A stretch of 37,801 nt of DNA from Deltaproteobacteria bacterium (GTDB lineage: Bacteria; Desulfobacterota; Dissulfuribacteria; Dissulfuribacterales; UBA3076), in contig PQXE01000014.1 in NCBI GenBank assembly GCA_003194495.1, positions 1 to 37,801 on the forward strand, given 5' to 3'. The notes under the pieces were generated by a model, which did not search any database, was not told the origin of the DNA, and was given only the letters and a program-made list of their open reading frames with translations. This document shows positions 1-6,656 of this stretch, piece after piece; the stretch's first letter is position 1, and each line of letters begins with the position of its first letter. The position numbers and the translations under genes were made by a program.

Positions 1-570
1 CGCGCTGGTAGCAATGGAGACACGGTGCCAGCGCTCACTCTGACGGGCAAGAAAGGCATCGGTATCCGCAACGGAAACCTCTAAAAAAATCTGCTGCTGT
101 GTGTTGAACCAAGTAAGGAATTTTTCTATGTGCCACTGGTAATTGGCGACCGTTACCGATGACAATCCACGCTCATTCTGCAAGTTGTTGGTAAAGTGCT
201 CCACCAAGGAGGCAAAGGGTTTTGGTTCGGTCTCAGGGATAGTCAGTCGACCTAAGAACTGTAGCCAAGCGGTAGCAGTTTGTCGGAACAAAATCTGCGA
301 CCAACGCTCCGACTGTGCACGATTTCGGTGTTTTTGTTGCCAAGCCCAACGTTCAGCGGCTACCTCAATCGCTAAAGGCGTGATCATTTCGTTGTTTGCC
401 AGATCCAGTTCCTGAACAATGACAAAAAGTTCCCGCGCCAACTTTACTAAGGTGCTTGGAGCAGCCCCGTTCTTCGCACGTTTAGCTAGAAAGGATGCTC
501 GCTCCGCTGCAAGGGGGGCATTTTGATGGCGCAAAAGTGCGCAAGGTTGTTTGAACAGTTGATCGAACAT
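1..570 (-). CDS. Tyrosine recombinase/integrase N-terminal part, RitA-like (recombinase-in-trio); runs off the left edge
   Basis: Absent from the ORF track. Manual translation from ATG at 570 (GAGGAG RBS upstream) gives MFDQLFKQPCALLRHQNAPLAAERASFLAKRAKNGAAPSTL...WLQFLGRL...LVEHFTNNLQNERGLSSVTVANYQWHIEKFL..., open to base 1. ERGLSxxT is typical of integrase SAM-like domains; the N-terminus resembles RitA proteins. Confidence 0.8.
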   Translation of the reverse strand, partial: MFDQLFKQPCALLRHQNAPLAAERASFLAKRAKNGAAPSTLVKLARELFVIVQELDLANNEMITPLAIEVAAERWAWQQKHRNRAQSERWSQILFRQTATAWLQFLGRLTIPETEPKPFASLVEHFTNNLQNERGLSSVTVANYQWHIEKFLTWFNTQQQIFLEVSVADTDAFLARQSERWHRVSIATSA

Positions 571-607
571 TTTCAGATCTCCTCTGTAGAAGAAATCTGA
601 TCAATAT

Positions 608-724
608 CACATAAATTATGTGGTGCCTAGCTGACTATGATGTTAGTCTAAACAGTTAGTTAGAGTTTTGGCGCCACATAATATCCGGCGCCACATAACG
701 AGTCTTATGTGGTGCGCCACATAA
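608..724. repeat. Terminal array of recombinase-binding repeats (GCGCCACATAA / TTATGTGGTGC) marking the element end
   Basis: Copies at 616-626 (inverted), 671-681, 688-698, 705-715 (inverted) and 714-724. 688-715 forms an 11-6-11 inverted pair. CACATAA-A-TTATGTG palindrome at 608-622. Confidence 0.8.
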
Positions 725-805
725 TGTGCGTAAATAGCGCCAGCACGGTTCTGCGAGGGGCTTGGTGACAATGACTAAATGGTCAAAGAAACCAGTCTAC
801 TCGAC
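725..805 (+). mobile_element. Group II intron 3' end (truncated domain V plus domain VI)
   Basis: tgtgcg-taaata-gcgc-ca-gcacggttc-tgcgagggg matches DV lacking its 5' GAGCCG. DVI stem gggcttggt...accagtct-A-ctc carries the bulged branch A and ends with the canonical CTACTCGAC. Confidence 0.75.
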
Positions 806-948
806 CAGGGCACCGCATCTGCTTTGTTGTCGGGCACTTGAAGTACAGGGAGTACGTCTGCGTACCCGTACGCCTCGCATTTGCAGCACCCTGCTTACAG
901 TTCGGTGGTTTGCGGTAAAACGGGCGTTGTAATTCCGTGAACGGTTAC
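806..948 (+). mobile_element. MITE-like repeat, copy 1 (first 11 bp of left TIR missing)
   Basis: Aligns along its length with 2862-2996 (gggcacttgaagtacagggagtacgtctgc..., cggtaaaacgggc...) and ends in GTGAACGGTTAC at 937-948. Confidence 0.8.
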
Positions 949-1569: not shown

Positions 1570-1666
1570 CTGAAGAAAGTGCGAGTAAGTGCGCAACAAG
1601 AGATCGTTTTATCCCGAACAGGAATCAGAAGAAGTTGGGCGACGTGGGGGAGTTAGTTTAATAGTT

Positions 1667-2480
1667 GGTAGTGGTTAAGTCTCATTTTAAATATATTCAT
1701 TATATGCAATAAAAAACACTTTAAAAACTATATGATGCATATATAAAACCTTCGAAAAAGCTAAAGTTTTTCTTGATACCCTCTGCAAACATTGACGAAT
1801 AGTGCAAACAGTCTTTCTATATGATTCGTTTCGCCTGATTCTTTTACAGCGCATTTATGAAATTTAGGATCAAATATATGTTTATAGGATTCCCGAAAAT
1901 CACTAAATGAGCATTTACCTCTATAAAAACATGGAATACGTTTTCATAACTTACGACATCTCTTCTTACTTCTATCACCAATCACAAAAGCAATTACTTG
2001 CCTATTATATCTAGCTATAGCAACCCATATCCAAACCTTAAAAATAGTAGAAAAAACAAAAGACCACATTCCGTCAACTTCTATCACTTCATTTTCATCA
2101 GGTTCTACCAATGTATCCTTCAAATCTTTCTCTTTCGCTTTATTTTTTAGCCAACCAGATACTGTCTGCCGACACACCTTAAATTTTCTTTCAATGCATC
2201 TTAAAGACATCCCCTCCATATAACATCCGATAACTAATTCCTTAAAATTATCTGAATATTTTTTGTACTGTGGGTTATCTCTACTATATTTACCGTAATT
2301 ATTACATTTATATAATTGCTTACCATTTATTGAATTAAATCCATGCTTAACAATATTCTCGCTATTACAATGATAACAATTTATTTTCATAATTTTCTCT
2401 ACCACAGCCTACCTCCTATCAATTTTTATTATATACTGCCATATAAATGACCGTAAATCAAACGCAAATTAACCACTACC
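1667..2480 (-). mobile_element. IS1-family insertion sequence (814 bp, degenerate)
   Basis: Perfect 12-bp TIRs GGTAGTGGTTAA (1667-1678) and TTAACCACTACC (2469-2480). AT-rich; no target-site duplication. Confidence 0.85.
1688..2405 (-). pseudogene. IS1 transposase (InsA-InsB type) pseudogene
   Basis: Zn-ribbon CYHC...KHG...QLYKC, HTH, and D-MWSFV...WIWVA...IAFVIGDRS. TGA at 1944-1946 replaces the usual Trp; homology continues (SDF, GETNHIER, then frameshifted IRQ...RKT and SFSK). Confidence 0.85.
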
Positions 2481-2850: not shown

Positions 2851-2996
2851 GTAACCGTTCACAGAGCACTGCATCTGGGCACTTGAAGTACAGGGAGTAC
2901 GTCTGCATACCCGTACGCCCTGCATCTGCACAGCACACTGTAAATGCTTACAGTTCGGTGCGGTAAAACGGGCATTGTAATCCCGTGAACGGTTGC
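2851..2996 (+). mobile_element. MITE-like repeat, copy 2 (intact, 146 bp)
   Basis: TIRs GTAACCGTTCAC (2851-2862) and GTGAACGGTTGC (2985-2996), internal hairpin ggg-a-gtacg...cgtac-g-ccc, no transposase. Abuts the ntrX stop codon. Confidence 0.8.
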
Positions 2997-4409: not shown

Positions 4410-6656
4410 TCAGGTAATAGGAAAAATCAATATAAATCTAGCCCCGCCGGGAATATTATCTTCCACCAGTATGCGTCCATTATGGTCCGATACAATAGAG
4501 CTTACAATAGCAAGCCCAAGGCCTGTGCCCCCCTTTCTTTTAGAAAAATAGGGTTCAAAGAGCCTTGGAAGGTCCTCAGGGGAAATACCTGGTCCTGTAT
4601 CGGACACACTGAGACATATTTCATTCCCGTCAGTGTTATATGTTATCTGAATGCCTATTTTACCACCATCAGGCATGGAGGCTACCGCATTGTCCAGAAG
4701 GTTGATAAGTGCCCTCTTTATCTGGTCAGGGTCCAATAAGGCATCCGGCAACCCTTCCTGTGCGTCCAGTTTAAATTTAATATTTGGGTGTCCATCCCTG
4801 TAAAGTGCAAGTACGTCATCTGCCAAACCGTCCAGCCTCGTGGGTTGAAGTCTGGGGACCGGCATCCTGGCAAAATTGGAAAATTCATCTACAAGATGTT
4901 TGAGTTCTTTTGCCTGGCTTATGATCGTATTTGTACATTTGTCAAAAACAACCCTGGCTTCGTCATCCAGCTTGTCAAGATATTTCTTGCGCAGTCTTTG
5001 TGCTGAGAGCTGTATGGGAGTTAAGGGATTCTTGACTTCATGTGCGATGCGCCTGGCTACCTCGCGCCAAGCAGCGAGGCGCTGAATCTTCTCAAGCTCT
5101 GTCAGGTCATCAAAGACTATGACTACTCCGAGAGATTTTTCATCCTGGTCTCTTAATATGGTAAAGCTTGCCAGGAGAGAAAGGGTCTTTTCTTTTATTT
5201 CCATGCGAATCGGACGCTGAAGCGTGCCTTTTGGAGAAAGGCTGAGTTCCTGCCTGATTTCCTCAAATTCCTTGGCTTGATCCTTTGTCAGGAGCTGAAG
5301 ATACGGCTTCCCGATTACCTGATCCGAGGACATATCCAGAATGCTCGCAGCTGATTTGTTCATAAGAGTAACCGCACCCTGTCTGTCAATGGATATTACC
5401 CCTGCTGTTACGTTCTGTAGGATAATCTCAATATAGCGCCGGCGTTGTTCCAGTTCGCCATAGCTCTTTCGCAACTGCCTTGAGGTTTCTTCAGTCCTGC
5501 GTCTGGCTTCCTTAAGGTCCTGGGTCATGATATTAAATGCCCGCACCAGAGAACTGAGTTCATCCTTACCTTTGGCTTCAAGGCTGAAATCCAGGTCTCC
5601 CAGTGCTACACGGTGAGTGGCCTCGGCAATCATCTGGACAGGCTCTGTGATGCTCTTGGCAAGCCGGAATCCAAACCATATTGAAACAAAAATGATCAGG
5701 AAAGTAATCAGGAAAAGGGTGATTAACAGGGAACCCTTAATTGGGTTCTGGAACAGTCGCAACTGGCGATAATCCTCATAACCCGAGCGAATATTATCGA
5801 GCAGGTAACTTATATCCTGGGGCATCAAGTGGCCCAAAGCCAATACGGCCTGAATACTGTCGTCTGCATTTCTTAAAGGGCGTATGACCCGGATTAGTTC
5901 ACCGCCCTCCAAAGAGACACTGTGCACCAGAGAATCCTTACCTTCAAAAACCTGGTCCAGCACTGAGGGAGGAATGCTTGGCGGCATATCCACGAGCGGT
6001 AGCCATATCTTAACAAAAAGTTCTTTATGAGATGAGTTTATTACCTCTATGGAATTAAAGTGGATTGCGCTGCCGGGATTTTGAGTACCAGGTAATAGTA
6101 GTGTTGGATTCACTAGCTGTTCTACGCATACCCTGTTTATTGTATTGTCCTCTTCAAAACATCTCAGGCTCAGGAGTCTCTCCATCTCTTGGGACAGATG
6201 CTGCAACTCAGTAACCTGGCCTTCGTAATATGTTCTTCCTATTGTCAGAGCATTATCAAGGGACCTTTCCACCTTTATGTTAAACCAGTATCCGATGCTG
6301 GTCCGGAGAAACTGGAAGGAGACCAGAAAGAGCAGTATCGTAGGAATAAGGGATAGAGAGACAAAGGCTATTACGAGTTTGGTCCTGAGCTTGGCTCCCA
6401 GCAAATTTTTTCTGTCTTCGAATATCAGTTTGACCAGATTACGTACTACAAGAAAACCTAAAAGCAGGATAAGGAGAATATTAAGGTTGATTACTGCAAA
6501 GATGAGTACATTGCTACTTGTCGATAGTGGACTGAAACCGGAGATCAGATGGTACTCGGCCACGGACAGCAGGGCGATAAGAACCCCTGCTGCCATCATG
6601 ATGATTCGTTCGATTCTTCGTTTTCTAGCTTCGCTAGTAGTTAAAGCGGATTTCAT
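4410..6656 (-). CDS. ntrY: NtrY-type membrane sensor histidine kinase (HAMP-PAS-HisKA-HATPase)
   Basis: N-terminal TM helices, AAWREVARRIAHEVKNPLTPIQLSAQRL H-box, NLLDNA, DTGPG, GTGLGL. Confidence 0.9.
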   Translation of the reverse strand: MKSALTTSEARKRRIERIIMMAAGVLIALLSVAEYHLISGFSPLSTSSNVLIFAVINLNILLILLLGFLVVRNLVKLIFEDRKNLLGAKLRTKLVIAFVSLSLIPTILLFLVSFQFLRTSIGYWFNIKVERSLDNALTIGRTYYEGQVTELQHLSQEMERLLSLRCFEEDNTINRVCVEQLVNPTLLLPGTQNPGSAIHFNSIEVINSSHKELFVKIWLPLVDMPPSIPPSVLDQVFEGKDSLVHSVSLEGGELIRVIRPLRNADDSIQAVLALGHLMPQDISYLLDNIRSGYEDYRQLRLFQNPIKGSLLITLFLITFLIIFVSIWFGFRLAKSITEPVQMIAEATHRVALGDLDFSLEAKGKDELSSLVRAFNIMTQDLKEARRRTEETSRQLRKSYGELEQRRRYIEIILQNVTAGVISIDRQGAVTLMNKSAASILDMSSDQVIGKPYLQLLTKDQAKEFEEIRQELSLSPKGTLQRPIRMEIKEKTLSLLASFTILRDQDEKSLGVVIVFDDLTELEKIQRLAAWREVARRIAHEVKNPLTPIQLSAQRLRKKYLDKLDDEARVVFDKCTNTIISQAKELKHLVDEFSNFARMPVPRLQPTRLDGLADDVLALYRDGHPNIKFKLDAQEGLPDALLDPDQIKRALINLLDNAVASMPDGGKIGIQITYNTDGNEICLSVSDTGPGISPEDLPRLFEPYFSKRKGGTGLGLAIVSSIVSDHNGRILVEDNIPGGARFILIFPIT

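Follow-up and report, generated by a model that had tools for sequence, protein, structure and literature searches.

RIT elements are described as units of about 3.5 kb with three adjacent, overlapping tyrosine-recombinase genes, ritA, ritB and ritC (Van Houdt et al. 2012, PMC3414803). In the parts of that paper available to us, their ends carry inverted repeats with an overlapping palindrome, multiple identical copies occur per genome, and some copies lie in other mobile elements, e.g., in the transposase gene of a Tn6049-like transposon. According to the accessible parts of PMC3414803 and PMC5737581, RIT mobility has never been shown experimentally, no convincing layout of binding sites is recognized, and no circular junction has been detected; the accessible part of PMC10214605 lists target specificity as not tested. 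Here, we analyzed a stretch of 37,801 nucleotides from a Deltaproteobacteria bacterium (contig PQXE01000014.1 of assembly GCA_003194495.1), termed the window, which begins with one end of such a RIT. Positions 1 to 948 very probably (probability of about 0.88) represent a three-level nest, with the RIT in domain V (DV) of a group II intron and the intron in the end of a miniature inverted-repeat transposable element (MITE); this estimate also covers a site-specific RIT branch and the crossover mechanism proposed below. The MITE would have been invaded by the intron, and that intron would then have been invaded by the RIT.

The window-type element resembles the known RITs in its gene trio, length, inverted repeats with a palindrome, and multiple copies. 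However, the RITs in the available text of PMC3414803 have no defined target, crossover site or link to an intron, whereas a single target, DV nucleotides 7 to 12, exposes a 7-6-7 layout here. The Tn554, SE and GInt elements likewise combine several tyrosine recombinases with site-specific insertion, but they have other gene sets and chromosomal targets, and none is reported to target an intron in the part of PMC10214605 at hand. No link between RITs and group II introns was found in the literature searched, a scope outside which Ricker 2013 and the supplements lie, and the word "intron" occurs 0 times in the available text of PMC3414803, PMC5737581 and PMC8138268. RITs, their inverted repeats and terminal palindromes, and their location in other mobile elements are already known; the precise target in intron DV appears to be new.

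Group II introns are also known in nested form, as twintrons and as introns that home into introns. There, an intron serves as the landing site as it does here, but the present invader is a recombinase-moved DNA element instead of a retroelement, and it lies in the catalytic hairpin. Class C group II introns insert at integron attC sites or terminators and thus also link a group II intron with a tyrosine-recombinase system via a hairpin-forming DNA site. In that case, the intron targets the recombination site, whereas here the direction is reversed and the recombinase element targets the intron hairpin.

The RIT end and the split domain V of the host intron

The window (1-37801) is the first part of contig C29 in an assembly of 166 contigs, and its base 1 is the contig start. 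The first 190 codons of ritA occupy 570..1 on the minus strand, where the gene runs off the contig. This open reading frame (ORF) matches Phage_int_SAM_1 of Pfam, a SAM-like core-binding domain, at residues 123-187 (36.9 bits). Just upstream of ritA lies an inner pair of 7-bp repeats resembling recombinase-binding sites (CACATAA-A-TTATGTG, 608..622), which also precedes ritA in related loci and may serve as an operator or arm site. The terminal inverted repeat, read from the sequence, consists of two direct 12-bp GGCGCCACATAA units at 670-681 and 687-698 on the plus strand, and GCGCCACATAA occurs at 671, 688 and 714. Three further segments lead into the intron. The first is CGAGTC (O', 699..704, plus strand), an inverted 6-bp "memory" hexamer that reads GACTCG on the opposite strand. 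Next come a 20-bp palindromic module, TTATGTG-GTGCGC-CACATAA (705..724), and TGTGCG (O, 725..730, plus strand), which represents DV nucleotides 7 to 12 and is the putative 6-bp crossover region. TGTGCG is identical in the intact DVs of two RIT-free introns (L012 and L011), and contigs C4 and C63 of the same genome read GACTCG at the corresponding location.

Positions 1-699 are 99.6% identical (3 mismatches in 699 nucleotides) to positions 5507-6205 of L023, a locus from another assembly, where three genes that overlap, ritA, ritB and ritC, encode proteins of 414, 311 and 331 amino acids, all matching Phage_integrase; RitB and RitC are assigned at this Pfam-domain level. The initial annotation had predicted two further recombinase genes and the other repeat array beyond the left edge. 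Both are present in L023, and the window contig begins at base 1. The GGCGCCACATAA array stands, inverted, at the ritC end of L023 and of C125, a contig of the same genome that begins with the last 90 bases of ritC, so both RIT ends exist in this genome. Trios are present in most loci long enough to hold one, including L021, whose RIT ends share at least 33 bp, L024, L025 and L030. GGCGCCACATAA-N5-GGCGCCACATAA at the ritA and ritC ends, together with the 20-bp palindrome, corresponds to the RIT pattern of ~30-bp terminal inverted repeats overlapped by a palindrome. About 120 N-terminal residues precede the SAM-like domain (from residue 123) in the L023 RitA, and invariant columns among five aligned RitA sequences include R264, H359, R362, H385 and Y394, candidates for the catalytic R...HxxR...Y set. 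The greater length of RitA compared with the other Rits, with an extra N-terminal DNA-binding (second core-binding) domain, is described in the available part of PMC8138268. A contig of 3335 nt from X1, the public run of the sample holding the window stretch best, ends at window position 692, which fits the RIT length in PMC3414803. The assignment of the window's element as a RIT of about 3.4 kb with three predicted tyrosine recombinases holds. Depths in X1 were 450.6 for the RIT-body contig, 48.3 for the piece with the intron 3' end and 17.7 for a piece over 920-1000; these depths, which are not copy numbers, hint at many RIT copies. An integron-integrase-like tyrosine recombinase in C49 of the same genome (101-850), following a stop codon at the contig start, is unrelated to the RIT.

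DV is the catalytic domain of group II introns, a hairpin of ~34 nt with the catalytic triad at nucleotides 2 to 4 and a 2-nt bulge. Its nucleotides 1 to 6 are absent from the window. TGTGCG at 725-730 together with the DV loop and 3' strand (TAAATAG CGCC AG CACGGTTC; 731..751, plus strand) matches nucleotides 7 to 33 of RIT-free homologues beginning GAGCCG TGTGCG, and domain VI with the intron 3' end follows at 752..805 on the plus strand (54 nt ending CTACTCGAC), both delimited by Rfam alignment and homologues. The DV of L012 (genome G007) is identical, and L011 (genome G017) is a close variant with a long domain VI and the same CTACTCGAC end, both genomes being of the same genus as the window; a search of related genomes for RIT-free introns had been suggested in the initial annotation. 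The window's intron 3' end is 99% identical over 70 bases to contig C163 of G008, a genome of the same genus. A permissive Rfam search aligned the DV stub and the full domain VI of 735-805 with Intron_gpII at 13.1 bits (E=5.9; gathering score 40), and nothing was found in the whole window at gathering thresholds. A sub-threshold score is expected because DV lacks its 5' strand, and the intact homologue L011 scores 44.7 bits. With the covariance model suggested earlier for this segment, the homologue lies above the gathering score and the window below it.

Judged from these alignments, 725-805 is DV nucleotides 7 to 33 plus domain VI of a real group II intron, as the initial annotation had read it, and the six bases with the catalytic triad are replaced here by the last CACATAA repeat. 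That earlier account needs two amendments. The last two repeats of the element form a separate 20-bp palindromic module that always lies on the 3' side of DV, and 725-730, taken as remaining DV, is DV nucleotides 7 to 12 and may also serve as the recombination overlap. DV nucleotides 1 to 6 with the triad would lie on the far side of the RIT, with nucleotides 7 to 33 and domain VI remaining in the window. With its catalytic hairpin split by such an insertion, the occupied intron would be expected to have lost both splicing and mobility. GTCTACTCGAC is also present in C12 and C144 with no DV upstream, and these occurrences were taken as unrelated.

The MITE end that carries the intron

The intron ends at 805 and the MITE body follows directly. 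The copy at 806..948 (plus strand) lacks its first 11 bases (GTAAGCGTTCA) and has its right terminal repeat, GTGAACGGTTAC, at 937-948; an uninterrupted variant copy at 2851..2996 (plus strand), used for comparison, begins GTAACCGTTCA CAGAGCAC. The element is non-coding and ~156 bp long. BLAST gave 143 hits, end-to-end copies number 56, and 30 copies are flanked by perfect 8-bp duplications (5 by duplications with one mismatch). Together with terminal repeats of the form GTAAGCGTTCAC...GTGAACG[C/G]TTAC, these features identify it as a MITE. CAGGGCACCGCATCTG, which stands after the intron, is preceded by GTAAGCGTTCA in ~85 other genomic copies and by GTAACCGTTCA in a few, and contigs from all four public runs have the same 11 bases before position 806. 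The MITE body beyond 805 and the bases missing in front of it were therefore correctly recognized in the initial annotation. In C4 of the same genome, this intron end lies at the equivalent base of the opposite terminal repeat and is directly followed by the inner side of that repeat, CGGGATTACAACGCC, which has GTAACCGTTCA before it in 31 of 62 copies.

The predicted 5' junction, GTAACCGTTCA followed by GTGCG, was found in the same genus and not in the window's own assembly: GTAA[C/G]CGTTCA with a following GTGCG was not detected in the own genome, and the GTAACCGTTCA-type TAA[C/G]CGTTCA followed by GTGCG occurs 9 times in G008, compared to once for the reversed control. RF02005, a model of intron domains I to IV (D1-D4), matches directly after two of these junctions, with 108.2 bits in L122 and 49.7 bits in L115, which is cut by the contig end; these were the two junctions long enough to test that scored. 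In L122, a D1 hairpin loop has TTGAACG, which is complementary to the final six bases of the exon, CGTTCA. No intron model matched L124, L127 or L128, which carry the pattern of terminal repeat and GTGCG, and the likeness of L116, with the same pattern, to the G008 intron is lost after ~100 bases. An intron 5' end in C76 was rejected: its insertion site is not a MITE, and its D1 is complementary to the flank of this intron itself and not to the MITE end. From the opposite repeat in C4 and the 5' junctions in G008 with D1-D4 verified by covariance model, the placement of the intron in the MITE terminal repeat, after its 11th base (GTAA[C/G]CGTTCA), holds at the level of sequence comparison.

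The 11-base end, as GTAACCGTTCA or GTAAGCGTTCA (201 and 234 occurrences in the own genome), also heads several short repeat families, one continuing CACTC... and others made of GGTTCA-like units. With this end shared across families, one transposase may mobilize several MITE families.

Domain V junctions in related loci and their anatomy

We searched related loci with a RitA alignment, which gave 9 loci in genome contigs and 80 in metagenome contigs. Of these, 17 have a reverse transcriptase (RT) gene whose 3' end faces the RIT, from the ritA side in 10 and from the ritC side in 7, and in all 17 DV nucleotides 1 to 12 (RARCCG + NNTGNG) directly abut the terminal TTATGTG-type repeat. For example, in L043, whose RIT is 88-91% identical to the window type, GAGCCG TGTGCG follows the RT directly against the RIT end (RVT_1, 47.7 bits; GIIM, 20.4 bits, below the cut-off). 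An RT and then GAGCCG had been predicted beyond the RIT of the window; L043 has this order, and the contig of the window starts at base 1. The full order is seen on one strand of L024, a 109-kb contig, with D1-D4 (RF02003, 99.4 bits), RT, DV 5' half, ritC<-ritB<-ritA, module, DV 3' half and domain VI. It is also seen in a cultured strain, on the finished Mesorhizobium huakuii plasmid NZ_CP050298.1, where D1-D4 (RF02003, 102.4 bits) and an annotated ltrA are followed by the 5' half of DV, then by trio and module, and finally by the 3' half of DV plus domain VI. RF02003 or RF02005 matches were obtained in the RIT-bearing L023, L024, L027, L060 and L130, along with RVT_1 and with or without GIIM, and the RT genes adjoining RITs are often intact. 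In addition, run X1 contains a contig with a loose end at position 704, where the RIT end continues into a DV 5' half in reverse complement.

To count junctions, we called "DV5" where a repeat with at most 2 mismatches from CACATAA was followed by 6 bases and the reverse complement of DV nucleotides 1 to 6. The call "module+DV3" required a repeat, 6 bases, an inverted repeat, 6 bases, a repeat, 6 bases and a DV 3' strand ending within 13-17 bases. The close group comprised 72 loci with RitA at least 47.5% identical to L023; L029, whose sole match was weak and RitC-like with no RitA, was dropped from all tallies. DV junctions, all at the same DV position, were present in 61 of 67 long-enough flanks of this group, and in 75 of 81 (44 DV5 and 31 module+DV3) when shorter flanks with a visible junction were added; 57 of the 61 loci with an informative flank had at least one. 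Among 16 loci with RitA below 47.5%, there were 2 DV5 calls, one of them doubtful, and 12 loci with informative flanks lacked DV. A quick RitA tree of 66 loci and 2 plasmid loci, from which rows without a full-length, stop-free RitA match were excluded, gathered the DV-associated rows into four supported groups, outside which the remaining rows fell (an NN gap and a short flank are the only reasons why L021 and L042 carry the label "other" in the tree). Its backbone was unresolved, and we therefore do not claim that the DV-targeting RITs form a single clade.

The introns occupied are of several types. Nearly identical RIT ends lie in two intron types of the own genome (C29, C4 and C63 vs C125), the nearly identical RIT of L023 is in a third, and the host introns match two Rfam D1-D4 families, RF02003 and RF02005. 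The RIT proteins of L043 and L023 are 91% identical, whereas their RTs are only 35% identical. In the own genome, all four assembled 3' ends of the two intron types (C29, C4, C63 and C125) are occupied, with three different hexamer combinations. The same junction in dozens of loci and in several intron types points to target specificity and not to one accident. Site-specific integration of this RIT branch at one DV position is in our view shown by recurrence across the compared sequences; the initial annotation had proposed that DV is targeted and had suggested a search for further copies in DV.

Some loci showed further nesting. In L010 (G008:C163, ~1570-1585, minus strand), a second intron type ending ...TATCCCGAC stands directly against the DV 3' strand of the first type, CCAGCACGGTTC...; this second type has a RIT end in its own DV, so that the nesting goes one level further than in the window. 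In L081 (~5100-5390), an intact second DV with domain VI (61.2 bits, likewise ending CTACTCGAC) lies ~230 bases downstream of the end of the RIT-bearing intron and probably represents an intron nested within an intron. The RT beside the RIT of L103 (9295-12700) is split into two blastx pieces ~2 kb apart, with something else inserted in the RT. In L028 (535-1179) and L105 (2859-3503), RitA stops after residue 106 and is followed by an antisense RT fragment of a group II intron; a RIT may here contain an intron, or have been rearranged, the converse of the arrangement described above. A second, distant RIT-like trio (24-41% identical) begins inside ritB of the first trio in L038 (2487-5486) and may be a RIT inserted into a RIT. 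Two more distant cases (RitA 44% identical) retain the palindromic module: the RIT of L092 (~5230-5300) lies in an IS21-type transposase gene (istA), and two RIT copies on plasmid NZ_CP014580.1 (L131) adjoin an annotated istB and probably also lie in istA. Mobile elements of other kinds may thus be the targets of other RIT branches.

Both junctions are present in 13 contigs, with ritA next to the intron 5' half in 7 and ritC in 6. The 20-bp module was on the DV-3' side in all 13, and in 31 junctions overall it was found on this side, whether that was the ritA end or the ritC end. In 12 of the 13, identical hexamers precede the element and follow the module. In 8 contigs, in silico removal of the insert restored a 33-nt hairpin (z -3.1 to -4.6) with 9 bp, a 2-nt 3' bulge, 4 bp and a 5-nt loop; 4 others gave a shorter helix with unpaired end bases. 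The matching hexamers and the restored hairpin indicate that the repeated hexamer is DV nucleotides 7 to 12. Its consensus over 32 distinct 5' junctions is K-A-T-G-C-G; position 3 is T in 31 of them and position 6 is G in 30. In 20 of 31 module+DV3' junctions, the outer hexamer recurs in reverse complement between the inverted repeat and the module. At its center, the module usually carries a palindromic hexamer, e.g., GTGCAC or GTCGAC; the own genome has GTGCGC there in the ritA-side copies and the reverse complement of GTGCGC in the ritC-side copy. GACTCG adjoins the DV of the second intron type (C125, L010, L025), as well as a GAACCG 5' half joined to a window-type RIT end in run X1. The module was also present in RITs outside introns (L092, L096-L098, L100).

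These patterns suggest a crossover model. The recombinases would bind the 7-bp sites CACATAA and TTATGTG, with CACATAA-N6-TTATGTG as a tyrosine-recombinase core-site layout. Strand exchange across the 6-bp overlap (DV nucleotides 7 to 12) would leave the hexamer on both sides of the element. The excised joint would read repeat, repeat, O', inverted repeat, S, repeat, O, inverted repeat, inverted repeat, an order that is palindromic around S and contains two 7-6-7 core sites in mirror image. Crossover of either core with DV (nucleotides 1 to 6, O, loop) would give the observed product. If either core can be used, both orientations of the trio are expected, with the module always next to the DV 3' half; inversion in place, involving the left junction and the inner core, would lead to the same outcome. 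Where the hexamer does not fit the DV around it (GACTCG in C4 and C63, and CGAGTC at 699-704), it would be carried over from a previous site. The "coupling sequences" of Tn916 are comparable to such a carried-over hexamer. Tn554, to judge from a cited title, is reportedly without target duplication. A 6-bp flank is carried to the next site by SE elements, according to the accessible part of PMC10214605. No joint across the RIT (empty site) was found in public-run contigs; since contigs drop rare variants, its absence is uninformative on excision.

Alternative explanations and significance

Several observations weigh against the nest, the site-specific branch or the crossover model. The left side of the window's own RIT copy lies beyond the contig start and cannot be read. 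Neither the rest of this RIT nor any DV-5' junction was found in the 166-contig assembly: by tblastn, no other own-genome contig carries the remaining ritA, ritB and ritC, and a pattern scan of the own genome found no RIT end adjoining a DV 5' half. The window's own covariance-model score (13.1 bits) is not significant. The 5' ends in G008 and the 3' end in the window would belong to one intron family, and no contig spans both. The junction classifier partly encodes the expected spacing, and its chance rate of ~1% per flank is an arithmetic estimate, not a shuffled control. Furthermore, 6 of the 67 informative close-group flanks are not DV junctions (e.g., the ritC side of L023, L026, L055, L065), and the DV halves of L025 do not pair after in silico removal, the only such case among the 13. 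Only 12 of 21 DV-5' flanks of at least 700 nt showed an RT, as judged with three reference RTs; the other 9 may be ORF-less or truncated introns. Both RIT ends adjoin DV 3' halves in the own genome (C29, C4 and C63 vs C125), and DV 5' halves stand on both sides in 5 contigs (L022, L051, L085, L086, L088). Such double flanks may stem from assembly-path ambiguity via the inverted repeats or from recombination between oppositely oriented copies. Finally, the crossover model is drawn from sequence patterns alone.

The recurrence of the junction could also stem from one ancient RIT insertion into one intron, with the composite inherited and spread as a unit, so that it would not reflect target specificity. 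Some junctions are shared by descent, for example in the identical rows L050, L051 and L052 and L096, L097 and L098, and such kin are not independent. However, nearly identical RIT ends in different intron types of one genome, RitA proteins 91% identical beside RTs 35% identical, host introns in two Rfam D1-D4 families, and hexamers that differ among the copies of one genome argue against a single inherited composite. Both gene orientations occur as well, and an intron with a split DV should not retrohome, given the catalytic role of DV. We consider this explanation very improbable. That the DV- and domain VI-like flanks are intron-derived terminal sequences of the RIT itself, and not a host intron, is barely credible. 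Both RIT ends do lead outward to a DV 3' half and domain VI in the own genome, and the ritC side of L021 does likewise, but RIT-free copies of the same DV and domain VI pass the Rfam threshold, the opposite side is a DV 5' half after RT and D1-D4, and in silico removal restores the hairpin. Moreover, copies with RIT ends at least 98% identical have very different flanks.

A RIT in DV might also act as an invertible or excisable switch of intron splicing or mobility, or be compatible with splicing if the insert folds into a closed RNA stem. In 20 of 31 junctions, the inner and outer hexamers are exact reverse complements, so the core sites at the ends are matched for in-place inversion and an RNA insert could close on itself. 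Both orientations occur within the same intron and RIT family (L033 vs L024 and L039), and the RT genes beside the RITs are often intact. This idea nevertheless appears quite improbable, and the mismatched hexamers in 11 of 31 junctions would weaken the RNA stem. In addition, the module is also found in the RITs outside introns, which makes it a feature of the element and not an adaptation to DV. A farther-reaching proposal, which we regard as unlikely, is that this RIT branch consists of obligate hyperparasites that recognize DV as a folded, bulged DNA hairpin, carry the two-core joint, and leave some occupied introns able to retrohome. The hairpin would be met in single-stranded replication or retrohoming intermediates, much as integron integrases recognize attC; the two mirror-image cores of the palindromic joint would permit entry in either orientation; and a self-closing insert might let DV fold in RNA, so that the RIT is carried along by retrohoming. 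The site-specific insertion of a RIT into DV of an intron in a MITE end is the reading that we retain.

Beside the nested elements, the window carries an overlapping gene pair at 1008-1569, an 84-amino-acid ORF with no Pfam match followed by a PemK/MazF-like toxin of 109 amino acids (93.2 bits), probably a type II toxin-antitoxin pair. An ORF of 153 amino acids at 1944-2405 (minus strand), in an AT-rich island, contains a helix-turn-helix and the first 50 positions of the IS1 transposase domain and is probably the N-terminal part of an IS1-family transposase. A repeat family of at least ~100 bases with GAGCCTGCAAGGTTATGTTG in C42, C66, C72, C129 and C132 of the own genome is unrelated to the RIT.

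How RITs move has been an open question since their description. The DV-targeting branch offers putative attachment sites, a 6-bp overlap, 7-bp binding repeats and a testable model of palindromic ends, and its DV target is exact, highly conserved and easily cloned. Genome annotation labels such loci only as three integrases beside an ltrA gene. For group II introns, the arrangement would amount to a new type of enemy, namely a DNA transposon disabling the catalytic hairpin of the ribozyme, and the occupation of four out of four 3' ends in this genome may bear on how intron populations are held in check.

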